A stretch of DNA of 64,000 nt from Faecalimonas sp. (lineage in GTDB: Bacteria; Bacillota; Clostridia; Lachnospirales; Lachnospiraceae): contig JAZQRQ010000073.1 in the NCBI GenBank assembly GCA_045629665.1, positions 7,892 to 71,891 of the forward strand, written 5' to 3'. Every line of letters starts with the position of its first letter. Position 1 is the first letter of the stretch. Under the pieces are notes generated by a model that was not told the origin of the DNA, did no database searches, and was given only the letters and a program-made list of their open reading frames with translations. The position numbers and the translations under genes were made by a program. Positions 49,382-62,104 of this stretch are shown in pieces.

Positions 49382-52300
49382 TTATTTAAAAAATTTTCCG
49401 TAGCATTCAATCATCGCCACCAATTCTTCTACTGTTAAGTTACCTTTACCAATAGACACTTTCAAGAACTGACCACCTGCCGCATCAAACATCTCTCTTG
49501 ATAATTCTGCGTATTGTGAAAGTTCTTCATATGTGAACAATCCATATGTCTCGATATCACGAGCCATTGCCTCGTAGTCATAAGTCATTGTTTCTGCATC
49601 TACATCAAAGATGTTAAACAATCCACCTACACCGCCTGGCATAGAAAGCATACCATTTACAAAGTAACAAAGGTGTCCGGCTGTAACAGGACTCCATGCA
49701 GTTGTTACTTGGTTTTCCAGTACAACATCCACTAATGCAACTTTCTCTAACTTATCGCCATTTTGTTTCGCAAATGTATGTCCGATATATTGGTCTGCAT
49801 TTCTGTCAAGGTATACATACTTGTTCAGATTGTAATCCCAGAAACCATGTTCTGAAATAACTTTTACCTCTGTACCATCTGAGAAGTAGAGTTTGATTAC
49901 TTCTACCTCTCTTTCCACTTCACTATCTACAAACATAATTGGTGCAAAATCAAATGCACCTGTTTCAAGATTCCAAACCAATAAATCTTCTGTGCCCGTT
50001 AACTCACAAACCTTTTTCAGGGTGCCATCTGCAAGAGTGATAAGAGTATCAGGAGTTACACAGGATGGACATTCATGTTCTGCACGATAAAACTCGATTA
50101 CATAATAGTACGTAGTTCCCTTATTATCTTTATAAGTAAACTGGCAGTATATAGAATTGGCTTTTTGGTCAGAACCTAATGCACCACTTGTCCATCCATA
50201 TAAGCTCTTATATGTTCCTGAGGTAATTGCACCCTCACTACCACTCTTTCCCGATCCAGAAGACCATCCCCCTCCACCGGATGGTTTATCTGTGGTTAAA
50301 ATAGTTAGATTTGTCGGTTTGGTTGTCGATTCTGGAGAAACGATTGTGGTTGCAATATCTGCTGTTCCTCCCTCTGCATAATCCTCTATCTTTATACCCA
50401 AGAACACTGGATACAACCAGTTGAAATCTGAAGAATTATCTTTAAAATCAACATACACTCTTGGACAATTAACTGTTATTCCATCAATTGTAGTACTTGT
50501 AACATTTGTTCCTGTTGAAGAAGGCATAATGTAAAGATTTCCACTGTTAGATGATACTGTCTTAACATCAGTAATAGTAGTGGCTGCCGTTTTACTTATA
50601 GAACTATATCCATAGAATGTGAATTTTGCATCCTTTGCCGTAGCTTCAACAACATAAACTGCTATTTCTATACTCTTCTCATATTTAATCTCAAAACTAA
50701 CAACTTCACCTTTGTCATTTAATTTAAAATTATACGGGTCTGTATATGTATACACTGCTTGATATGTTCCCGCTTTATTAAAGGTAATTGTCTTTCCAGT
50801 ATAATCTATTCCATCAATTATCACGGTATAAGGCAATTGGTTTCCAGTTTTAGTTACTGAAAGAATGTTCGGATCATATACCTTGTTTTTACCTTGATCA
50901 AATGAAATCTCTAGTTGTTTCGTATCACTATTGTAATAACAATGTTCATTTGAATCTGATGAAGGTGCCACATAATTTTGCTCTGCTTCGTGGTCAAATT
51001 TTACATTAGGTAAAATACTATATTGTTCGCTAGGAGAAAATGTTTTAGGTGGCATTGAAACACTAGTAGGTACTGCAGTATAAACATATCCCCTGTATGA
51101 CATAATAGAAGCATCTTTTCCTGTATATCCCTTTAGTGTATCGATATTATCTTTTCCTATTCCCTCAGTTATAGATAATATACAAGGATTAATCCATGTT
51201 ACACCATCAGAATCTGTATATTGCAAATTCTTGTAAGTTGTATTAAACATAGCTGAACGAAGCTGTTCCGCTGTACTATCTTTAAAGGTTGTTTTATTTG
51301 AAATACAATTATACTGTGTTAGTAAAGGATTTCCGTTTGCGTCCGTCTTGACATGCAATTTGGCTGCAAGATTGCATTCATAGAATACAATGCCTAATCC
51401 AACAACTCCCTTATCATTTGATGTCGATTTTCCATCCGCTGTCGACTGATTAATTGTTATCACGTTATCTAGTGTAATACTACCACCTCGAATATCTAGG
51501 TTGGCAAAAATTCCACCCTCAAGGGTAGTATTAATAATCTGCAAATCTCCATCTTGTGCACGTACAGCCGAAGAACCATTCGACACGTAACTATTCGCGA
51601 TAATCGAATTACCATTTGTCAGAATTGTAGGATAATTATATTCGGATTTAGCTGTTGCACCGTATTTCGTATATACTTCTCCAATGATTTGAATATTATC
51701 TAAAATAGCATTTTTCAACGCAACAGCATAATTACCTCCGATATAACCGTTCACGGTATCTCCATCCTTACCAGCAGTAACATCAAATTTAAATCCATTT
51801 CCGTACAAAGTCGCATTTTCGAGCCAGAAATTACCGTTTGAAGACATAGTAATGTCATTGAGCAGAACAGAATTCCTATTCTTTAACGGAGAGTTACCAC
51901 CGCTAGCAGTAGTTACATTGTAGGCATTCACAACTTCCAAATACAATATTGTAGGTTGACAGAAATCGTAATCTTGGATAGTAACTTTAACAACACCTGT
52001 TCCAGAGAATTCAATTGTACCTTGCATCCAATCTGTAGTATTAGGTTTGAATGTTCCTGATACATTTGAATTTTCGTCAACTTTATCAATGCTTACATAT
52101 ACACCTGAGTCACTAATTTCACGCGCTAGTTTCTTGCCATTCTCATCAGATTTAGGTTTTTCATCTTCGTCATATAATTCAGTATTTGCTTGGAATAACG
52201 TTTCTAGATATACAGTATTTTGGTTACCAACGCGATATAAATAATCATTAGTAAATTTACTTACAAATTTCTCAGCAGATTCGTTTTGATCACCTTCAAT

Positions 52301-54721
52301 AATACCCAAATCGGTTACAATACCACTATATTCTTTCAATCCAATACTATTTACTCCCCAACTGAAACCAGTAAAGAGTTGATGGAATGGAAGGTATACG
52401 GCTTGCTTATCTTCAGCATCTGTGTGGTTGTGTCCAATACAGGTCGCTTGTTCTTTCCCTTTTGAGATATCAATCTCATCATTCGGAACACGGCTGAACT
52501 GATAATCCTCCGAATATGAAGCCATGGTATTTTCTTCAAACTCACAATAGAAGTAATCATTCCAATCACCAAAATTAACGGTGCACTTCTCTGCTGAAAT
52601 ACCTTTCATATTTGGAATAACTTTTCCTTCTTCATTAGTTGTATTATGGCGAATAGAACCAATTATCATACCTGCATAGCGATATGCATAATATTGATAA
52701 TTTGCACATACGTCATTGTAAACATCAATCTGTGCAGCAACATGACAGTTGTCAAAATAAACCGTATCTCCTGTAGAATCACCATTTTCATCGACATTAC
52801 CACGATACATACCAATCAGACCACCACAAGCAACATCCCAGCTTCCCCACAAAGCCGAAATAATATTAGTATTATCCACAGTAATGTTCTTTAAAGTAAT
52901 AGTTTCTTTTGTTTCATGTTCTCTTCCAGCAATACCAATAATTCCTCCATTACCAGTGTTATATACACGAGGATTACATTGTGTAATTGCAATATTTTCA
53001 AACTTTGAATTCACTGCATATGCTGCAATAACACCTGTAGGTGTAAATTCACCATCAGATTCGAATTTGTCAACAGTCAAGTTCTTAACACTACCATTTA
53101 CAACATAACCGAAAAGTCCCATTGCATCTTTATAGTAATTTGGTGTTCCACTATAACCATCATTATAATCGCCAAACATTTCCCAAGTATTCTGATAGAA
53201 ATTAGAAATAGTATGACCATCACCATCAAAAACACCTTCGAAAGAATATACAGTACTTTCAACATTCGTTTCTACAGTTGTAGGTCGATTACAGTTGTTC
53301 TTACTTACAAATTCTTTGTTATTATTGTATCCAATAGGATAAAAAATTGTCGTTGTTGCACTTCCCTTTTCTTCATCAGACACTACATTACCATGATTCA
53401 AGTTAATATCTGAAAGAAGTTTTACTGTTTTGCCTTCAAAACTATCTCTTGCAATTCCTGCGGCCATACCACCTACGATTTGAGAAAAAGCATGAAGTTG
53501 ATCGGCATTGGCAACAGTCAACTCAGTTTTACTTACATCATACCAATCATAATCAACTTTACCCTGCCAAGCCTTTGAAGTGTCAGCTACCATTGCAACC
53601 TCAGAGAACGAAGTCATTGCAACACTTACTTCTCCTGTAAGCGGATCATATGTAAATGTATTATGTGCAGTAAGTTCAGACGCATCATTAACCAACGTCA
53701 TCTTTGAAGTAGTACCATCTTCGACGTGGAAAAGGTGATAGTTACCCATGTTCATGTATTTAGGTAATACTTCGCCAAGTTCAATTACTATCGGAACTGT
53801 ATTATCTTCAGCCACTCCATCAATATGAACATCAACCGGAATCAACACTTCGTTATTAACTACTGTAATGTCACTTGTTGTATTTTTAAGAGGCGTAACA
53901 GAAAGTGTAAGTTTGTCTGCATCATCTTCCATAGTTACACCAGCCGGAACAAATGCGGAAATACCGTCTCCATTTAAAGTTACGCCATCTGTTGGAACCT
54001 TTCCATTGTCAGGAGTAACATTTACTGACACCTTGCCTGGAGTTAAGATTGTCGGCATTTCTGCTTTTGAATCATAATCCGAACCAAAAGAATCCTGCTC
54101 AAATGGTGCCTGAGTTGCTAATGCCGTAATGGTAAATTGTCCGGCATCCTCATTCTGGTACTCATTTCCGGCGGTAATAATCATATTCATCGCCATGGTC
54201 ACAATAACCTCACCTGACGGATGCAGAGGGCTGGATTGTTCTGCTGCCAACAGGGTACCATCTGCAGTAGCACCACCATTTAATACGTTATTAAGCAAAC
54301 CTATTACCTTTAGGTTCTTCAAATCTGAGCGTTGTTCTACATTTACACCACCCTCAGCAAAGTACACGTTAATAACTTCAGCTAGTTTGCCCACACCATT
54401 CTGAGGCGTGAGAGATAACTTATAGTTAAGAGCAAGTTCACCGGCATTAACCAATTTTATGTACTTAACATCAGTGTATCCCGGCTCCCAATTATCATAG
54501 TTGAATATAGTATTATGTCCGTCTTCCTCAACATTGCGCCATTCGCCACTATTAAGGTCGTCCGTCCAATACATTTCTAAATCCAAGTTTCCAGCTGTAA
54601 TAATATTATTACTACTAGAGATTTTGTCGCTGAACCACGCAAATGTCGTGCCAATGAGCATAGATATGCACAACAGCAAGGCTATTACACTATGGAGCAA
54701 CGAATTTTTAGTCTTCTTCAT
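49382..54721 (-). CDS. 1779-aa TasA-domain adhesin with GLUG/beta-helix region and C-terminal Hedgehog-like Hint domain
   Basis: MLIGTTFAWFSD signal; NWEPGYTDVKYIKLVN; FEGVFDGDGHTISN...GLFGYV (GLUG-type); Hint from C1554 (CVTPDTLITLADG) to YFVNGMLS1693. Confidence 0.88.
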   Translation of the reverse strand: MKKTKNSLLHSVIALLLCISMLIGTTFAWFSDKISSSNNIITAGNLDLEMYWTDDLNSGEWRNVEEDGHNTIFNYDNWEPGYTDVKYIKLVNAGELALNYKLSLTPQNGVGKLAEVINVYFAEGGVNVEQRSDLKNLKVIGLLNNVLNGGATADGTLLAAEQSSPLHPSGEVIVTMAMNMIITAGNEYQNEDAGQFTITALATQAPFEQDSFGSDYDSKAEMPTILTPGKVSVNVTPDNGKVPTDGVTLNGDGISAFVPAGVTMEDDADKLTLSVTPLKNTTSDITVVNNEVLIPVDVHIDGVAEDNTVPIVIELGEVLPKYMNMGNYHLFHVEDGTTSKMTLVNDASELTAHNTFTYDPLTGEVSVAMTSFSEVAMVADTSKAWQGKVDYDWYDVSKTELTVANADQLHAFSQIVGGMAAGIARDSFEGKTVKLLSDINLNHGNVVSDEEKGSATTTIFYPIGYNNNKEFVSKNNCNRPTTVETNVESTVYSFEGVFDGDGHTISNFYQNTWEMFGDYNDGYSGTPNYYKDAMGLFGYVVNGSVKNLTVDKFESDGEFTPTGVIAAYAVNSKFENIAITQCNPRVYNTGNGGIIGIAGREHETKETITLKNITVDNTNIISALWGSWDVACGGLIGMYRGNVDENGDSTGDTVYFDNCHVAAQIDVYNDVCANYQYYAYRYAGMIIGSIRHNTTNEEGKVIPNMKGISAEKCTVNFGDWNDYFYCEFEENTMASYSEDYQFSRVPNDEIDISKGKEQATCIGHNHTDAEDKQAVYLPFHQLFTGFSWGVNSIGLKEYSGIVTDLGIIEGDQNESAEKFVSKFTNDYLYRVGNQNTVYLETLFQANTELYDEDEKPKSDENGKKLAREISDSGVYVSIDKVDENSNVSGTFKPNTTDWMQGTIEFSGTGVVKVTIQDYDFCQPTILYLEVVNAYNVTTASGGNSPLKNRNSVLLNDITMSSNGNFWLENATLYGNGFKFDVTAGKDGDTVNGYIGGNYAVALKNAILDNIQIIGEVYTKYGATAKSEYNYPTILTNGNSIIANSYVSNGSSAVRAQDGDLQIINTTLEGGIFANLDIRGGSITLDNVITINQSTADGKSTSNDKGVVGLGIVFYECNLAAKLHVKTDANGNPLLTQYNCISNKTTFKDSTAEQLRSAMFNTTYKNLQYTDSDGVTWINPCILSITEGIGKDNIDTLKGYTGKDASIMSYRGYVYTAVPTSVSMPPKTFSPSEQYSILPNVKFDHEAEQNYVAPSSDSNEHCYYNSDTKQLEISFDQGKNKVYDPNILSVTKTGNQLPYTVIIDGIDYTGKTITFNKAGTYQAVYTYTDPYNFKLNDKGEVVSFEIKYEKSIEIAVYVVEATAKDAKFTFYGYSSISKTAATTITDVKTVSSNSGNLYIMPSSTGTNVTSTTIDGITVNCPRVYVDFKDNSSDFNWLYPVFLGIKIEDYAEGGTADIATTIVSPESTTKPTNLTILTTDKPSGGGGWSSGSGKSGSEGAITSGTYKSLYGWTSGALGSDQKANSIYCQFTYKDNKGTTYYYVIEFYRAEHECPSCVTPDTLITLADGTLKKVCELTGTEDLLVWNLETGAFDFAPIMFVDSEVEREVEVIKLYFSDGTEVKVISEHGFWDYNLNKYVYLDRNADQYIGHTFAKQNGDKLEKVALVDVVLENQVTTAWSPVTAGHLCYFVNGMLSMPGGVGGLFNIFDVDAETMTYDYEAMARDIETYGLFTYEELSQYAELSREMFDAAGGQFLKVSIGKGNLTVEELVAMIECYGKFFK

Positions 54722-54751
54722 GTCTGTATCCCCCTTTGAATATTGCCATTA

Positions 54752-54822
54752 CAGCAATCAAAAGACACAAAAGATTATTTATGCCCTTTGATTGCCGCCT
54801 ATCCCTAGTAAATAGAGATAGG
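54752..54822. other. Intergenic double stem-loop, copy 2
   Basis: CAGCAATCAAAAG / CCTTTGATTGCCG (54752-54797) abutting CCTATCCCTA / TAGAGATAGG (54798-54822). Confidence 0.8.
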
Positions 54823-54864
54823 TCGGACTTATATCATCTGATTCATCAGATAAATTTTAGTTCA

Positions 54865-56850
54865 CTAAGGTTTAGCTATGTCTTCCCAACCATCGTTAGC
54901 AAGGTATCTGCCAAGTTCACCCTTGAATGTACCGCCAGTGATAGTAACATTCTCTGTGGTAGCCTTTGCATTTCCACCACCGAAAGCAACATCATTATTG
55001 AATGTACCACCGGTGATAGTAACATCCACATTAGCAAAACTCTGTCCATATGAATATGAGTAGATAGATAAACCACCTGTACCATTCAGAACTCCACCGT
55101 TAACAGTCAGATTAACATCAGGAGCATCTGCTGGCTTGTTGCTAGGCAGTTGAATCTGAACAGCACGAGCACCGGTAATGGTTCCGCCGTTGATTGTACA
55201 ATTGATAGCAGCACTGCCAAATGGACACAGACGGATGGCATTCTTCTGGCTTACAACCTTACCACTATTGATAATCAATTCAGCACCGGCAGAGCAGTCG
55301 ATAGCAACACTAGATCCTGAATTAGTTGTATTGATTACAGTTGCACCGTCAATCACAAGTTTCCCGGTATTATTGATAGTGTTGGTGCCATAACCAAAGT
55401 TAGGATCGCCAACGCCTTTGTAAGTAACAGTACCGTTCTTGATTGTAAGTTCGCCCTTGTTAGCAATTGCACTAGATGCAGCTGCAGTTGTGTTCTTAGT
55501 AGTAATGGTGTTGCCATTTAAATCAAGTACAACAGCCTTGTCTGCTGGGACAGTAATGTTTGCTTCACCAAGGTCAACATCAGCATCTAAAATAATGTCT
55601 CCACCTTTTGCAATAGCATCTGCCAATGTAGCAGCATCAGCAACCTTCTTAGCACCGAAGGTGTAGGAATATGTACCGATGGTGATATACTCGCCTGTCT
55701 CCTCATTTGCTGAACCAGAAGTAGCGTTAGGATCTATTGTAGTCTCATAGAGACGCAATTCAACAGTCATAGTCTTTCCTGCCATAGCAGCCTGATCTAC
55801 AGCAAATGCACCACAAGAGAATTCTTTAACAGCAAGGCAGAGTTCTTCATAGTTCATGCTAATACCTGCAAACTCAAGCATACGAACAGGAGTATTAGCA
55901 GCGATATCGCCAACACCATCTAATTCAAATGCGAGCCAATCAGGAGAATATGTATCATACTGACCTGCTAGACCGATAGCAGCATCATCTACATCCTGAT
56001 CAAAGAATGCAACAAAGTCAGCGTGCCAGTAACGGTAAGCGTTCATCTGTGCCTGATCGTAAGTCTCGGTTGTGTTAAACACATAGCCGGTGTCTAATGT
56101 AACAGTATTGCCGCCAAGGGTTCCAACTGTAGGCATTTTTGCCAAAACAGTAGTACGTGCTGCCGGAGCACCGCCAAACTTTGCATCTGCGTCATATTGA
56201 TTGTTGAAAGAGTCACTCTCAGAAGTGTACTGAGTAGCCATAAGGTTGATTCCTAGATCAATCTGAGGTGCAACCTCTCCTGTACGGTAATTTGCTTCAT
56301 TACCAACTGTTTCAGGCATATAAACTACTAATGCAACATACTGTTCAACTGCACCTGCTTCGATGCTACCAGCCTTAGTATAACCAGTAGATAAAATAGC
56401 AGAATTAGTCACTGCGGCACGTGCAGCTGCACGGTCTGCATAAGGTGTGGAAACACCTTCGATAGCACCGAACTCAATGTAATCAGAAAGACGCAGTGCT
56501 TCACCTGCAACATTAATAGATTCGACCTCATTTACAATGTTAATACCCAACTGATATTTCAACGCAAGAGTTCCAAGATTAGAAACCTTTAAGTAAACAA
56601 CTTCTGTGTGCCCAGGTTCCCAAAGAGTATTTTCCTCAAACACATTAGTATTAGCGGTAACTTTTTCCCAGCTATCGCCATTGTAGTATTCCAACTCAAC
56701 ATCAAGATTACCGGACTTGATGATATTGTTAGTGCTGGAAACACTATCCGTAAACCAAGCGAATGTCGTTCCAATAAGCATTGCCATGCACAGAACTAGT
56801 GACAACACGCTTGATAAAAGTGCACGTTTTGTGCTTTTTTTGTTATTCAT
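54865..56850 (-). CDS. TasA-domain protein fused to an uncharacterised domain and a beta-helix
   Basis: MLIGTTFAWFTD signal; LWEPGHTEVVYLKVSNLG; C-terminal xTIxGGTF beta-helix repeats; ATG 56850 after GGAGG. Confidence 0.85.
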   Translation of the reverse strand: MNNKKSTKRALLSSVLSLVLCMAMLIGTTFAWFTDSVSSTNNIIKSGNLDVELEYYNGDSWEKVTANTNVFEENTLWEPGHTEVVYLKVSNLGTLALKYQLGINIVNEVESINVAGEALRLSDYIEFGAIEGVSTPYADRAAARAAVTNSAILSTGYTKAGSIEAGAVEQYVALVVYMPETVGNEANYRTGEVAPQIDLGINLMATQYTSESDSFNNQYDADAKFGGAPAARTTVLAKMPTVGTLGGNTVTLDTGYVFNTTETYDQAQMNAYRYWHADFVAFFDQDVDDAAIGLAGQYDTYSPDWLAFELDGVGDIAANTPVRMLEFAGISMNYEELCLAVKEFSCGAFAVDQAAMAGKTMTVELRLYETTIDPNATSGSANEETGEYITIGTYSYTFGAKKVADAATLADAIAKGGDIILDADVDLGEANITVPADKAVVLDLNGNTITTKNTTAAASSAIANKGELTIKNGTVTYKGVGDPNFGYGTNTINNTGKLVIDGATVINTTNSGSSVAIDCSAGAELIINSGKVVSQKNAIRLCPFGSAAINCTINGGTITGARAVQIQLPSNKPADAPDVNLTVNGGVLNGTGGLSIYSYSYGQSFANVDVTITGGTFNNDVAFGGGNAKATTENVTITGGTFKGELGRYLANDGWEDIAKP

Positions 56851-56884
56851 TTTCATTTCCTCCAATTAAATCTGTCTTAACTAA

Positions 56885-57583
56885 CTAGTCTTCATCAACA
56901 AATGCTGTTCCGGCTGTCCAGTTAACATAAGCAAACGCCTCGACTGCATTATCGCCTGTATTATCTCTTTGTAATGCATCAGCTGACACAACAATATCAA
57001 ACTCATTATTGATTTCAGCCATTTCCTGTTGAGTGAACTCTGTAGGAATATTTACGTTTGTAAATAAGACCTCATCACTACCTGCCGGAAGTTCTCTGTT
57101 AAGATAGAGATACCATGTAGCCTTGTCATCTTGAACAGCCACTTCATCTTCTACCAGAAGCCATTTGCTAGTTATATCTGTCCCAACATTAGCAGCCAAG
57201 CCATAGCTAGAACCCTCAAATAACTCCGTGAAAACAAGAGAGCCACCTGCTGCTTTCCAGCCACCTGCCTTATTCAATGTTACTGCCACACGAATCCATT
57301 GTGTATAATCACCTGTATTTGTGATTGTAGGATCCTTAGCGATATCATCACCTGGGATTACATCATAATATGTAACACCTGTAGTTGTTTCATTACCTTC
57401 AAGGTCTGTTTCTGATACTTTTACTGAAAATTCAGGATCGGTATCATTTTCACTTGTAGCAACCTTGAATGAGTTGGTAACGCTCTTGGTATCATTAAAC
57501 CAAGCCAATGTTCCCAATGATAAAATTGCAACCAAAGAAACAGCTAACGATGCAGTCAACACTTTTTTCTTATTCATTTTCAT
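56885..57583 (-). CDS. SipW-dependent TasA-like protein, candidate major fibre subunit
   Basis: ILSLGTLAWFNDT signal; VIPGDDIAKDPTITNTG; ADALQ near the C-terminus; single domain, first substrate after the peptidases. Confidence 0.85.
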   Translation of the reverse strand: MKMNKKKVLTASLAVSLVAILSLGTLAWFNDTKSVTNSFKVATSENDTDPEFSVKVSETDLEGNETTTGVTYYDVIPGDDIAKDPTITNTGDYTQWIRVAVTLNKAGGWKAAGGSLVFTELFEGSSYGLAANVGTDITSKWLLVEDEVAVQDDKATWYLYLNRELPAGSDEVLFTNVNIPTEFTQQEMAEINNEFDIVVSADALQRDNTGDNAVEAFAYVNWTAGTAFVDED

Positions 57584-57669
57584 CTCTTTGTCCTCCTTTC
57601 CCTCATGATATTTATTTCAAAATCATGCTTACCGGAATTCCATGAGCAAACACGATTCTAAAACCGAAT

Positions 57670-58368
57670 TTATTGTGATTCCTGATTACTTGCATTCACC
57701 CTTAGATAACAGGTCTCGCACAATTGCCCCACGCCTGTGACATAGTACTTTCTTGCATCTGCCGGCAGGTCCCTTAGCACACCTGTATCATCTCCACAGA
57801 GTATGCATTGTTCTGTTTCCAACCTGACTTTTTCCTCTGCGCCCTTCTCTTCGACGAGCTCATCCTCTTCTTTCTTCTTTCCAAAGAAATCCGGCAAGAA
57901 GACAATTAGAATCAATATGAACCCAACGCCCACCGTGATATACATGCCCGGTGGATTCTGAACAAAATCAGACACATACCCAAGCAGTGGAATGCTAAAC
58001 CGCGGCACTCCGATAACATTGTTAAAATGCACCGGCGAAGCGTCTGCTGTATCGTTTGCATCTCCCTTTGTATAGAAGTGTTGATTTTCTTCATCCACCT
58101 CCACAACTCTATGTGTGGCCACTACCAGATTCTCGTTTAATACAAATGTAATCGGTGTTCCCACCTCTATCTCATATGGATTCACATCTTCTACATAGAT
58201 GAGGTCTCCTACACTGTAAGTCGGTTCCATACTGCCGGATATAACATTGAACACCTGATACCCCAGTAATCTTGAGCCCATTAGGAACACGGCACATAGC
58301 ACAAAAAGCCCTACTAAAAATGTAGAGCTTACATTCCAAATTTTCTTAAACACATTATTGCGTTGCAT
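57670..58368 (-). CDS. sipW: Signal peptidase I, SipW/ER-type, with C-terminal zinc ribbon
   Basis: VISGSMEP (Ser), ATHRV (His), TKGDAN; tail CILCG...QLCETC. Confidence 0.9.
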   Translation of the reverse strand: MQRNNVFKKIWNVSSTFLVGLFVLCAVFLMGSRLLGYQVFNVISGSMEPTYSVGDLIYVEDVNPYEIEVGTPITFVLNENLVVATHRVVEVDEENQHFYTKGDANDTADASPVHFNNVIGVPRFSIPLLGYVSDFVQNPPGMYITVGVGFILILIVFLPDFFGKKKEEDELVEEKGAEEKVRLETEQCILCGDDTGVLRDLPADARKYYVTGVGQLCETCYLRVNASNQESQ

Positions 58369-58392
58369 AGTATCGCCTCCCCTTACCAAGTC

Positions 58393-58620
58393 TTAATAAC
58401 GCACAAATGGTAGAATAGATAACCAAAGCTTGCGCCTTTTTTGAATCCAATATTTCTTTTCTCTTCCACGTGTTCTGTGTATTTCCCCTGTGAGATGTTG
58501 TAGTTCTCTGCGAAAATCAAGCAGCCATTTTATTAAACCAACGAAAACTACAAGCAAGAGAAATCCAATGCAAATAGCGAGTAGCAGATAAATGCCAAAG
58601 TCGCTTCCAGACTGATTCAT
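58393..58620 (-). CDS. Small membrane protein
   Basis: One long TM helix and a basic tail; TAATG overlap with the upstream sipW. Confidence 0.7.
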   Translation of the reverse strand: MNQSGSDFGIYLLLAICIGFLLLVVFVGLIKWLLDFRRELQHLTGEIHRTRGREKKYWIQKRRKLWLSILPFVRY

Positions 58621-59336
58621 TATTCTTCCTTCTTCTCCGTCTCAACAGAGTTTTTTTGACGGGTAAGTTCTTCTTTCAATGCCAGAAGTTCTTCCATCAT
58701 CCTTGCATTTTCGGCTGCTCCCATTGCAATCTTCGCCCGTTCTTCCTCCATCTCCTGCATTTGCTCCTTCTTATATCTACGGAACAAGCGAAGGCAATTG
58801 AGTCCTTGATAGAGTATCAAGAGCATAAATGGTATGAAAATGCACACGAAATATCCTTGCGTTGTCTTAAGAAAATTGAAGAAGGTTCCAATATTAGGAA
58901 TTGCTTTTTCATATCTTCCCAGAATATAAGGGTAAGTTACGATTGTAGCATCGTCTGTATCCGTGGTTGTACCATAAGTAACGAATCCCGGATTGCCATT
59001 CGCATCCGTTGTCAGGGCACGAATCTTATGGGTGATTGTCTCACCAAAACTCTCTGGATTCTGTGACATGTATGTAATGATGTCATCCTCTTTTAACGTC
59101 GCAGGGTCCACTTGTTTTACCAAAATCAAATCTCCTGCATCAAAATCTGTCTTGCTCATGGAATCTGAGGTTACAACGTAGGCTCTGTATCCAAATAAAC
59201 TTCTATCATTACGGTTAAATGTAGTTACAGAGACTATGGTGAATATCATCATACACACTGCAAGAAGCACTACTGCCCAGACCACTATTGTTTTTACTAT
59301 ATTGAATATTTTCTTTGCATTACTTGGAAGTTTCAT
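58620..59336 (-). CDS. sipW: Signal peptidase I, SipW/ER-type, with C-terminal coiled coil
   Basis: VVTSDSMS (Ser), GDLILVK, ITHKI (His), two TM helices, charged helical tail. Confidence 0.88.
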   Translation of the reverse strand: MKLPSNAKKIFNIVKTIVVWAVVLLAVCMMIFTIVSVTTFNRNDRSLFGYRAYVVTSDSMSKTDFDAGDLILVKQVDPATLKEDDIITYMSQNPESFGETITHKIRALTTDANGNPGFVTYGTTTDTDDATIVTYPYILGRYEKAIPNIGTFFNFLKTTQGYFVCIFIPFMLLILYQGLNCLRLFRRYKKEQMQEMEEERAKIAMGAAENARMMEELLALKEELTRQKNSVETEKKEE

Positions 59337-59351
59337 TTTCTATTATCCTCC

Positions 59352-59379
59352 GTAGAACATAATTCTTATTATGTGGTAA
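59352..59379 (+). repeat. dif-like recombination site A
   Basis: GTAGAACATAA-TTCTTA-TTATGTGGTAA (11-6-11); direct repeat of site B. Confidence 0.8.
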
Positions 59380-59381
59380 AA

Positions 59382-59409
59382 AAACTACATAATTCTTATT
59401 ATGTAGTAA
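59382..59409 (+). repeat. dif-like recombination site B
   Basis: AAACTACATAA-TTCTTA-TTATGTAGTAA. Confidence 0.9.
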
Positions 59410-59633
59410 AAAAGCAAAATAAAATTATATAATTTTTCTCCTTTGAATAATGGTATCATAATACATAATTGTTTTAAAAGCAAGGCTTTTTTGATAATAA
59501 TTTAACAGAATGAAATATACGCACGTCAATAACACCCGCGAGCTGAGTTTTACATAAAATCGCCGGGGGTGTTTTTTTCGCGCTCGAAAAGTCGCGTGGG
59601 GAATGCGTTTTATTATTAGCCCGAAAGCACCTA
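59408..59633. promoter_or_regulatory. Candidate invertible promoter segment, currently pointing into the sipW/TasA operon
   Basis: Between inverted sites B and C; minus-strand TTGCTT (59483-59478), 17 bp, TATGAT (59460-59455); plus-strand hairpin plus T7 at 59531-59578. Confidence 0.75.
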
Positions 59634-59659
59634 ACTACATAATAAGAATTATGTAGTAT
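59632..59659 (-). repeat. dif-like recombination site C (inverted copy of B)
   Basis: TAACTACATAA-TAAGAA-TTATGTAGTAT; the 24-bp core 59634-59657 is the exact reverse complement of 59384-59407. Confidence 0.9.
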
Positions 59660-59667
59660 TTTTTATT

Positions 59668-60489
59668 TCAGACTACTAATCCCAATTGCTCAATCTTTCT
59701 TCTGTGTTCCATTCCTGTTGTCATGATATAGATACGAGTTGTGTCTATACTGCCATGTCCAAGAATATCTGCCAATTTAGCAATATCCTTTTCTATTTTA
59801 TAAAATGTTTTTGCAAATAGCTTGCGTAAATTGTGTGGAAATACTTTTGATGCACTTACACCTGCTTTCTCACATAATTTCTTCATATCTGACCAGATAT
59901 TGCTCCGATTGAGTGGTTTACCGCTCTTTGTCCGAAATATGATTCCCGAACGAATTCCTTGTTGCTTTGCGAATCCAATTAATGTCTTTCTAAGTTTTCC
60001 CGGAAGAAGGATTGTTCGCGTTTTATTTTTACAACACACTACAACCTCTCCGTTCTGAACTGCCTCAACTGTAAAATAAGAAAGTTCCGATACACGTATT
60101 CCTGTCCCGCAGATTGTCTGCAAGATGAAATACAGTCGCGTTTGTTGCCTTGCCGCACTCAGTAGTCGCATGTACTCCATCTTTGTCAATTCCCTCTGTT
60201 CTGCACAATAGATCTGACGCTGTGTTTTCATACTCTTTACTTTGTAATCAGCCCAACCCACATACGATAAAAAACTATTCAACGATGCTAACATGGAGTT
60301 GATGCTTCTTATTGCATATCCACTTTCTATTAGAGACTTTTTGTATTCTATAACTATTTCTTTTGTGACGTCGTTATGTCCTACAAACCTTGAAAACTTC
60401 CTCACATCACGTAGATATTTTTCGACTGTGATGCTACTCTTTTCTTCCTGCCTTAAATACTCCTCAAATTCTAAAATTAGTTTTTCCAT
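59668..60489 (-). CDS. Tyrosine recombinase (Xer/integrase family)
   Basis: Intact catalytic set: GIRVSE (R), KNK (K), PHNLRK (H-x-x-R), LGH, TTRIY (Y); ATG 60489 after GGAGG; stop 8 nt from site C. Confidence 0.95.
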   Translation of the reverse strand: MEKLILEFEEYLRQEEKSSITVEKYLRDVRKFSRFVGHNDVTKEIVIEYKKSLIESGYAIRSINSMLASLNSFLSYVGWADYKVKSMKTQRQIYCAEQRELTKMEYMRLLSAARQQTRLYFILQTICGTGIRVSELSYFTVEAVQNGEVVVCCKNKTRTILLPGKLRKTLIGFAKQQGIRSGIIFRTKSGKPLNRSNIWSDMKKLCEKAGVSASKVFPHNLRKLFAKTFYKIEKDIAKLADILGHGSIDTTRIYIMTTGMEHRRKIEQLGLVV

Positions 60490-60560
60490 ACGAGACCTCC
60501 ATGAACCAAATTTTTCATTTGTAACATTAGTTTCTCCTATGATGGTATTATAATGCAATT

Positions 60561-60607
60561 AAAAAAGGACAAAATTTGTCTATCCTTACAAATTTCGTCC
60601 TCTTTTC
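60561..60607. terminator. Probable terminator of pepD
   Basis: AGGACAAAATTTGT / ACAAATTTCGTCCT imperfect stem with A6 at 60561 (T6 on the minus strand). Confidence 0.6.
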
Positions 60608-60658
60608 TTATTATATATGTTTTGATCTCATTATGCAATCTCACAATGCAAAACGGAA

Positions 60659-62104
60659 TTATTTCTCCGCCAACACTGCTTTCAAGAATTCCCACACTCT
60701 CGCAATCGAACTGATGCTAATCACTTCATCCGGTGTGTGCACATCTCTCATGTTCGGTCCAAGTGAAATGCAATCTAATCCTTCAATCTTATCTGCCAAC
60801 AGTCCGCATTCTAGTCCTGCATGAATCACTTCGATTTTTGGTGTTACACCTGTCTGCTTTTCGTACACCTTGATACAAAGGTCACGAAGCTTAGACTCTC
60901 TTGCATATTCCCATCCTGGATATTTTCCATGGTAAGATGTCTCTCCCCCAAGGCTTTTTGTAATCTGCTCTAATTTTGCTGCAAGGTACTCTTTTGCTGT
61001 TGCAACAGAACTTCTGATTGAGAAGCACGTCTGAATTCCTTCTGCGTCAATCTTCATCACACCCATGTTGAGTGACGTCTCAACAAGTCCCGGCAAATCC
61101 TGACTCATTGCCTGCACGCCGTTTGGCATCAGGTTAAGTGCCGTGATTGCTTTTTCCTTAGATGCATCTGTAAGAACTTCGCATTCTGCCACGTCTTTTA
61201 CCTCAAGCACCATTGCAATATTTGAATCTGTCACACCATACTCTGCCTGAATCATTGCATTGAATTCATCTGTTGCTTTTTTCAGTGCATCTACATCTGC
61301 TTCTGCTACAACAAATGTTGCATTAGCATTCTTCGGAATGACATTGTCTTTCACTCCACCCGCCATACTCACTATATCGCATGCCACCTTATCTTTCATA
61401 AACAAGAAGAAACGTCCCATCATCACATTTGCATTTGCACGTCCTCTGTCAATCTCAATTCCGGAATGTCCACCGAGAAAGCCTGTCGTCTTAATCTCAC
61501 ATACAACTCCACTCTTTGTATCCATTTCCACTGGGATCTTGCAGTCTGCTCTCATACCGCCTGCACAACCTGCTGTGAATACACCTTCATCTTCTGAGTC
61601 GATGTTGAGAAGTCTTTTCGCCTTACAGCATGACATATCAATTGCTGCTGCACCTTCCAATCCCGTCTCCTCACAAATCGTAAATACACACTCCAAACGT
61701 GGATGCGGAATATCCTTCGCATCCAGAAGCGCAAGCCCATAAGCCACCGCAATACCATCATCGCCACCGAGTGTCGTGCCGTCTGCTGTAATATAATCTC
61801 CGTCCACCATGATACGAATGCTTTCTTTTTCCATATCAATATCGCATTCCGGAACCTTGTCTCCGACCATGTCCAGGTGTCCCTGAATAATGATTGGCTC
61901 TACATCTTCGTATCCCGGTGTTGCCTCACCAATAATAATCACGTTACCAAGTTCATCCTGCTCGTAATAAAGTCCTCTCTCCTTTGCAAATGCCACACAG
62001 TAGTCGCTTAGTTCCTTCTCATGATAAGAAATGTGTGGAATATTGCAAATATCCTCAAAAAATCCAAGCACTGATGCCGGTTCATATCCGTTTAAAACTT
62101 TCAT
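60659..62104 (-). CDS. pepD: Aminoacyl-histidine dipeptidase (M20C)
   Basis: IQGHLDMV, TTLGGDDGI, FTICEETGL, LNIDSEDEG, IHAGLECG, VHTPDE. Confidence 0.95.
   Translation of the reverse strand: MKVLNGYEPASVLGFFEDICNIPHISYHEKELSDYCVAFAKERGLYYEQDELGNVIIIGEATPGYEDVEPIIIQGHLDMVGDKVPECDIDMEKESIRIMVDGDYITADGTTLGGDDGIAVAYGLALLDAKDIPHPRLECVFTICEETGLEGAAAIDMSCCKAKRLLNIDSEDEGVFTAGCAGGMRADCKIPVEMDTKSGVVCEIKTTGFLGGHSGIEIDRGRANANVMMGRFFLFMKDKVACDIVSMAGGVKDNVIPKNANATFVVAEADVDALKKATDEFNAMIQAEYGVTDSNIAMVLEVKDVAECEVLTDASKEKAITALNLMPNGVQAMSQDLPGLVETSLNMGVMKIDAEGIQTCFSIRSSVATAKEYLAAKLEQITKSLGGETSYHGKYPGWEYARESKLRDLCIKVYEKQTGVTPKIEVIHAGLECGLLADKIEGLDCISLGPNMRDVHTPDEVISISSIARVWEFLKAVLAEK

Follow-up and report, generated by a model that had tools for sequence, protein, structure and literature searches.

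Invertible promoters with adjacent tyrosine recombinases are classic genetic switches, and the best-known case is fimS of E. coli with its recombinases FimB and FimE, in which a 314-bp promoter segment between 9-bp repeats serves a surface-fibre operon and is turned by two directionally biased recombinases, with IHF and Lrp as further components. The locus described here lies in a 64,000-nucleotide stretch of Faecalimonas sp. DNA, the whole of which we call the window, and it resembles fimS in having a short, putatively invertible promoter segment between inverted repeats, a tyrosine recombinase encoded by its neighbour, and a surface-fibre operon downstream. Unlike fimS, it has one Xer-like enzyme, palindromic dif-shaped sites of 18-24 bp, and a predicted insulating terminator inside the cassette. 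Its sites follow the layout CATAA-6 bp-TTATG, which we take to be that of the dif consensus. The Xer/dif system, here represented by archaeal XerA (PDB 4a8e), also supplies the closest relatives of the enzyme, and the identical arms of the sites fit a single-recombinase system such as XerA. In contrast to Xer/dif, the sites in the window form an inverted pair plus one extra site beside the gene, an arrangement for inversion rather than dimer resolution, the enzyme falls below all Xer cut-offs, and the centre of the site varies from locus to locus.

Two groups of described switches in Clostridia come closer still. In C. difficile, the tyrosine recombinase RecV switches cwpV, flgB and cmrRST by inverting a short leader segment (PMC2784873, PMC5903667); the OFF state of cwpV is made by a terminator, and RecV is encoded away from its targets, of which there are several (PMC2784873, PMC5903667). 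Unlike these switches, the window has the enzyme adjacent to a single target locus in the genome and the promoter within the segment. The second is "inverton group 139" of the hCom2 community (Microbiome 2025, PMC11892184), a set of 33 invertons from 17 strains, to which Clostridia contribute 32. Of the inverton groups in that study it has the strongest link to an adjacent tyrosine recombinase group ("invertase group 35"), which accompanies nearly every inverton; examples given there have repeats of 25 nt around a 206-nt interior and of 13 nt around a 228-nt interior, and read counts moved between orientations over culture passages (PMC11892184). The Clostridia host, the adjacent tyrosine recombinase, and the sizes of repeat and interior all match the family to which the window belongs, and this family is probably group 139, a match made on host, adjacency and sizes. 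In the published account of group 139 there is no site anatomy, variable 4-nt centre, promoter-plus-terminator cassette or SipW/TasA cargo (PMC11892184). A literature search combining "invertible promoter" with sipW returned no paper. The switch type is already known, and such novelty as there is, a modest one, lies in the SipW/TasA-like cargo.

Our preferred reading, to which we assign a probability of roughly 85% on comparative sequence evidence, is that the neighbouring Xer-like recombinase flips a promoter-plus-terminator cassette and thereby switches a SipW/TasA-type fibre operon, and that the locus was assembled in the ON state. The core of the argument is a pair of sites. Site B, the inner distal site (59384..59407), reads ACTACATAATTCTTATTATGTAGT, and site C, the recombinase-proximal site (59634..59657), is its exact reverse complement; the two agree at 24 of 24 positions with 226 nt between the arms, so the 24-bp perfect inverted repeats of the original prediction are there exactly as described. 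With their outer A/T runs (59658-59663 at site C) the repeats extend to 30 nt at 97% complementarity, and an inverted-repeat scan ranked them first in the 64-kb window. Site B can be written ACTACATAAT-TCTT-ATTATGTAGT and site C ACTACATAAT-AAGA-ATTATGTAGT, a palindrome divided 10-4-10 or, equally, 9-6-9. Because each site is itself palindromic, its direction is set by the central 4-6 nt alone (TCTT versus AAGA). A third site, A (59354..59377), lies outermost on the distal side and abuts the ribosome-binding site of sipW; it repeats B in the same direction at a distance of 30 bp, its 18-nt core (59357-59374) being perfect and its outer arms degenerate. The central 6 nt are TTCTTA in A and B and TAAGAA in C, and the locus thus holds three sites in two orientations within 300 bp, beside a recombinase gene.

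This clustering is specific to the locus. The core ACATAA-N6-TTATGT has three exact matches in the window, each of them at the switch, and allowing up to one mismatch raises the count to four, against 0.42 expected from shuffled sequence, in which none of 100 shuffles reached four. The full 24-bp site has no copy elsewhere in the 1.63-Mb, 99-contig genome, and a literature search for its letters retrieved irrelevant primer matches only. As to the dif-like character claimed for the sites, the shape holds (CATAA...TTATG arms, with ACATAA/TTATGT around an asymmetric 6-bp centre), but an 11-6-11 layout does not, the palindromic arms being 9-10 nt long, and "dif-like" applies to shape alone, since the enzyme stays below the cut-offs of the XerC, XerD and XerA families. 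Neither a B. subtilis dif query (up to 7 mismatches) nor a loose dif pattern, applied genome-wide, found a dif site of the host itself.

The recombinase gene (59668..60489, minus strand) encodes an Xer-like enzyme of 273 amino acids, the putative invertase, from an ATG at 60489 served by a GGAGG ribosome-binding site; a longer reading frame from a TTG extends to 60558. Its stop codon (59668-59670) is close to site C, as had been proposed, but the gap is 10 nt, the figure of 8 nt being obtained only by counting from 59659. Pfam recognises a Phage_integrase domain (2.3e-22) and an N-terminal SAM-like domain, and alignment to the closest solved structure, Pyrococcus XerA (PDB 4a8e, 3.9e-21), places all six catalytic residues, R132, K156, H219, R222, H245 and the nucleophile Y254, which agrees with the earlier description of the gene as intact. 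Among NCBIfam models the best match is XerA_Arch at 137 bits (cut-off 220), followed by XerD at 106 (cut-off 330) and XerC at 104 (cut-off 335), and NF007370, the model for FimB/FimE-type tyrosine-type DNA invertases, scores 18.4 bits against a cut-off of 221. The genome carries two further Xer-like genes, which are distant relatives of this one, 27-28% identical to it. Exact-protein look-ups of the recombinase, with either start, and of SipW found no identical protein on record. At the start of the region upstream of the recombinase gene (60490-60660) stands a hairpin (AGGACAAAATTTGT...ACAAATTTCGTCCT) with a T-run, the terminator of the dipeptidase-like gene that precedes it; right after this comes a TATAAT box with no good -35 in view.

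The evidence that bears most directly on inversion comes from relatives. Homologues of the recombinase were collected from same-genus genomes, metagenome contigs and species-representative genomes, which gave 154 loci with a recognisable stop. When the interiors of these loci were compared all-against-all, they fell into 14 homology groups, six of which contain both orientations relative to the recombinase, with zero inconsistent assignments. Around the window itself (scores are given for the stated orientation and the other), the interior has the same orientation in L097, from a Faecalimonas sp. MAG (recombinase 93% identical in amino acids, interior 85.5%, score 313 vs 51), and in L034, from a metagenome contig (87%, interior 79%, 251 vs 62). 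It is reverse-complemented in L033, from another metagenome contig (93%, interior 85% over 215 nt, 306 vs 54), in L098, from a Faecalimonas sp. MAG (86%, 80.7% over 218 nt, 259 vs 41), and in L008, from the same-genus genome G033 (72%, 73.2% over 209 nt, 151 vs 62). The contig of L033 stops before the distal site, and collinearity was assessed where both flanks are present: in L098 and in L008 (contig L021), the downstream sipW remains collinear with the recombinase and the segment between the sites alone is turned. Homologous interiors thus occur both ways round between collinear flanks, next to recombinases 72-93% identical to that of the window, which supports the ON/OFF inversion that had been predicted for this locus.

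The same comparison defines the strongest rival, namely that the segment was flipped during species divergence and has since become fixed, leaving the operon constitutive and the recombinase idle or otherwise used. In favour of such a relic, the assembly of this strain has the ON form only, and the orientation differences documented above lie between species or strains. A search for an opposite-orientation contig within the same MAG found none. Against it, the enzyme has kept every catalytic residue, and the 24/24 match of B and C together with the perfect core of A is a degree of perfection that soon decays without selection; furthermore, the published family of the same shape flips within cultures (PMC11892184). 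We therefore regard a fixed relic as improbable.

A related pattern appears where assemblies end. In 25 of the 154 loci the contig terminates at most 300 nt past the recombinase stop, inside the switch, which looks like assembly breakage at polymorphic inversions. Loci at contig ends include L005, L033, L050, L057, L070, L105, L113, L130 and L158. A switch of this kind would explain the frequent contig breaks that metagenomics encounters just past these recombinase genes, and breakage at this place could offer an inexpensive way to spot active invertons among large sets of MAGs.

Between the sites, the 226-bp segment (59408..59633) carries a predicted promoter and a predicted terminator placed back-to-back; in the operon sense it contains an A7 run, a GC-rich hairpin, and then the promoter. 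The candidate promoter, TTGCTT-17-TATGAT, lies on the minus strand (59455..59483) and faces sipW, with the -35 at 59483-59478, a 17-nt spacer and the -10 at 59460-59455; an A-rich stretch precedes it, and transcription would be expected to start near 59448. It agrees with the consensus at 8 of 12 positions, which is why a simple consensus scan did not list it, and a position-weight matrix scores it at 8.1 on the promoter strand against 5.2 on the opposite strand. Its distance to the end of the segment equals that of TTGACA-17-TATAAT promoters in other family members, the block is near-identical in L097, L034, L033 and L098, and among close relatives the stretch from -35 to -10 is the best-conserved part of the interior. 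Because of this homologous position and conservation, we accepted the candidate and called the assembled state ON. The promoter of the original prediction therefore stands as to presence, direction and place within the family, but by consensus it is weak. A second candidate, TTGACG-18-TTAAAT (59531-59502), was rejected, since neither L034 nor L006 conserves its -35 and its position overlaps the stem of the hairpin.

The predicted intrinsic terminator is a GC-rich hairpin followed by T7 (59531..59578, plus strand), on the strand opposite to the operon, within a region (59515-59590) that folds at -23.5 kcal/mol. The same hairpin, each time back-to-back with the promoter, occurs in L097, L034, L033, L098, L006 and L008. 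Automated calls of terminator direction across the family were noisy, many hairpins being bidirectional, and were not used as evidence. This element invites the reading that the switch is of the cwpV type, in which transcription arriving mainly from the recombinase gene or from beyond it is gated by the terminator alone and the internal "promoter" is irrelevant. The hairpin and T7 oppose the operon now and would face it once inverted, the recombinase gene is co-oriented with the operon and stops 10 nt from site C, and the internal promoter matches the consensus poorly. Yet in most family members a near-perfect TTGACA-17-TATAAT, directed outward in every case, occupies the homologous place, and in the close relatives of the window it is precisely the -35 to -10 block that is best conserved. 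Moreover, both mechanisms can act jointly, and the promoter-inversion model already contains the terminator. A switch worked by the terminator alone is accordingly very unlikely. That the repeats are not recombination substrates at all, but operators of a dimeric regulator or Xer/dif resolution sites beside an integrase or Xer paralogue, would accommodate the operator-like 10-4-10 palindromes, the dif-like CATAA/TTATG arms and the Xer models as best family matches of the enzyme, but is scarcely credible given that relatives carry the segment reverse-complemented between unchanged flanks, which neither operators nor dif explain, that the enzyme lies under every Xer cut-off in a genome with two other Xer-like genes, and that three sites crowd into 300 bp beside the gene.

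Under the preferred reading of a promoter-plus-terminator cassette flipped by its neighbour, the 273-aa recombinase would bind ACATAAT-N4-ATTATGT palindromes, probably in dimeric form, two dimers then joining as a tetramer, and exchange strands across the asymmetric centre TTCTTA/TAAGAA. As B and C are mutually inverted, recombination between them would flip the 226-bp segment. In the ON state, as assembled, transcription from the promoter would cross B and A and continue into sipW and the operon for TasA-like fibre and adhesin proteins that SipW processes. In the predicted OFF state, the promoter would be directed towards the recombinase gene, at its 3' end, and the hairpin of site C and its U-run may stop the transcript there; the GC-rich hairpin with T7, now in the operon sense, would block read-through from the recombinase gene. 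Catalysis by this enzyme, the activity of the promoter and terminator, and flipping in this strain we infer; the strain's assembly documents one orientation, ON.

The wider family shares this anatomy. Site pairs were counted in the loci that have 450 nt or more of sequence after the recombinase stop, 120 in all; in 112 of them an inverted-repeat pair starts 0-60 nt past that stop and encloses 163-322 nt, with modal sizes of 24-25 nt for the repeat and 203-228 nt for the interior. Aligned cores from 97 loci give ACATAAT-NNNN-ATTATGT, with each arm position at least 90% invariant, whereas 44 different values occur at the central 4 nt across these 97 loci and the partner site always has the inverted copy. 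Fixed arms and a free centre are what would be expected if the arms bind protein and the centre is the strand-exchange overlap, which has to be the same in both partners. Alone among these loci, L115, from an uncultured Erysipelotrichaceae MAG, has a palindromic centre (CATG), so that its sites have no intrinsic polarity and could support deletion as well as inversion.

A position-weight scan of the interiors found an outward promoter of sigma-70 type in most loci, very often a perfect TTGACA-17-TATAAT, with the end of the -10 in every case about 20-45 nt from the end of the segment to which it points. This promoter is directed toward the recombinase in 65 loci and toward the cargo in 24. In these reference assemblies the majority state in the sampled gut populations thus seems to be OFF, the window representing the minority ON state. 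Outside the proximal site, 59 of 72 unique loci have an A-tract (at least 7 A in 12 nt), and the matching T-run outside the distal site is unconserved (12 of 72). With low confidence, we suggest that the proximal site and its A-tract, read from inside as a hairpin and U-run, halt OFF transcripts before they become antisense to the recombinase gene.

Of 400 genomes sampled evenly across the class, 98 carry the recombinase family at E <= 1e-60, often in several copies, and 59 of 217 genera are represented; the closest relatives are from Faecalimonas and other Lachnospiraceae MAGs. Cultured carriers include Monoglobus pectinilyticus, in which sites of the same type, ACATAAT-TTTG-ATTATGT, stand next to the homologous gene at a spacing of 260 bp, and Pusillibacter faecalis MM59, with a variant whose arms differ; in both, the gene is annotated merely as "tyrosine-type recombinase/integrase". 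The Pusillibacter locus (L177; plasmid pMM59_01, NZ_AP023421.1, about 430300-430960) has a recombinase 51% identical to that of the window and the arms ACAAAAACAACATTTCGT / ACGAAATGTTGTTTTTGT, and its repeats precede the gene of an S-layer-homology protein. Because these arms are quite different, arms appear to have co-diverged with the enzyme in distant branches of the family. SipW homologues follow the switch in 9 of 81 loci, among the closest relatives only; elsewhere the first downstream gene encodes a zinc-ribbon or SPFH protein, a TetR regulator, a BspA-type LRR protein, a cohesin or dockerin protein, an S-layer-homology protein or Wzz.

Taken jointly, these features permit a bolder interpretation, which we put forward as tentative and think somewhat doubtful: a portable cassette of about 1.2 kb derived from Xer/dif, with the centre of the site as a private address and sites A and B giving graded, not binary, fibre output. 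Such a cassette may comprise the recombinase gene, the A-tract, a dif-shaped site, the terminator, the outward promoter and the second site, and may have come to stand before many unrelated surface-related operons in about a quarter of Clostridia genomes. The central 4 nt may serve as a private address that prevents cross-reaction between the cassettes of one genome, and the A/B duplication may allow two nested inversions and as many as four states, a hairpin-plus-U7 attenuator being what would distinguish their leaders. Two paralogous modules of a single genome, L012 (G030:C125) and L017 (G030:C190), have the common centre CGAA, which would permit recombination between loci and argues against a strict private-address role of the centre.

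The third site deserves separate mention. The outer flank of A (TTCTACG...) matches the one found in L098, where the distal site is single, for which reason A looks ancestral; B, with T7 following it in the operon sense, mirrors C with its A-run. Doubled distal sites, spaced 30-44 bp apart, occur in nine loci, the window counted, and doubled proximal sites in two. By geometry, C could give an inversion with either A or B, and the doubling of sites on either side in different loci would fit a use of the outer site now and then. As part of the ON leader, site B is predicted to fold into an RNA hairpin of -8.7 kcal/mol followed by U7, which could act as a weak attenuator and would complicate a simple ON reading. 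An Rfam search of 59000-60000 detected neither a riboswitch nor any other known RNA and so gives no support to a leader of the c-di-GMP type, like that at flgB of C. difficile.

Downstream of the switch, on the minus strand, the first gene that would come under its control encodes a SipW-type signal peptidase I of 238 amino acids (58620..59336; GGAGG ribosome-binding site at 59347-59351), which scores 63.8 bits against TIGR02228 (cut-off 51.85) and matches a SipW model at 1.7e-22. The rest of the proximal operon (49382..58620, minus strand) encodes a membrane protein of 75 aa, another SipW-type peptidase (57670-58389), also above the TIGR02228 cut-off, and three proteins of 232 aa (56885-57583), 666 aa (54865-56865) and 1779 aa (49382-54721), which have a SipW-dependent signal peptide or a TasA/camelysin-like N-terminus and all score above the cut-off of TIGR04088. 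Further co-oriented reading frames continue to about 44571, and a homologous operon follows the switch in two same-genus genomes (G033 and G007). If the preferred reading is right, SipW/TasA-type fibres and giant adhesins of an uncultured gut member of the Lachnospiraceae join the surface structures switched by inversion in gut bacteria. The anatomy of the family, in which 7-nt arms are invariant, the 4-nt centre is free, promoter and terminator form one cassette and the proximal A-tract is conserved, could allow invertons to be annotated on sequence alone and could supply parts for compact orthogonal genetic switches. In the 1779-aa protein, residues about 1539-1642 give a weak intein/Hint-like match (TIGR01445, 18.7 bits, below cut-off), which suggests possible autoprocessing in a fibre-associated adhesin.
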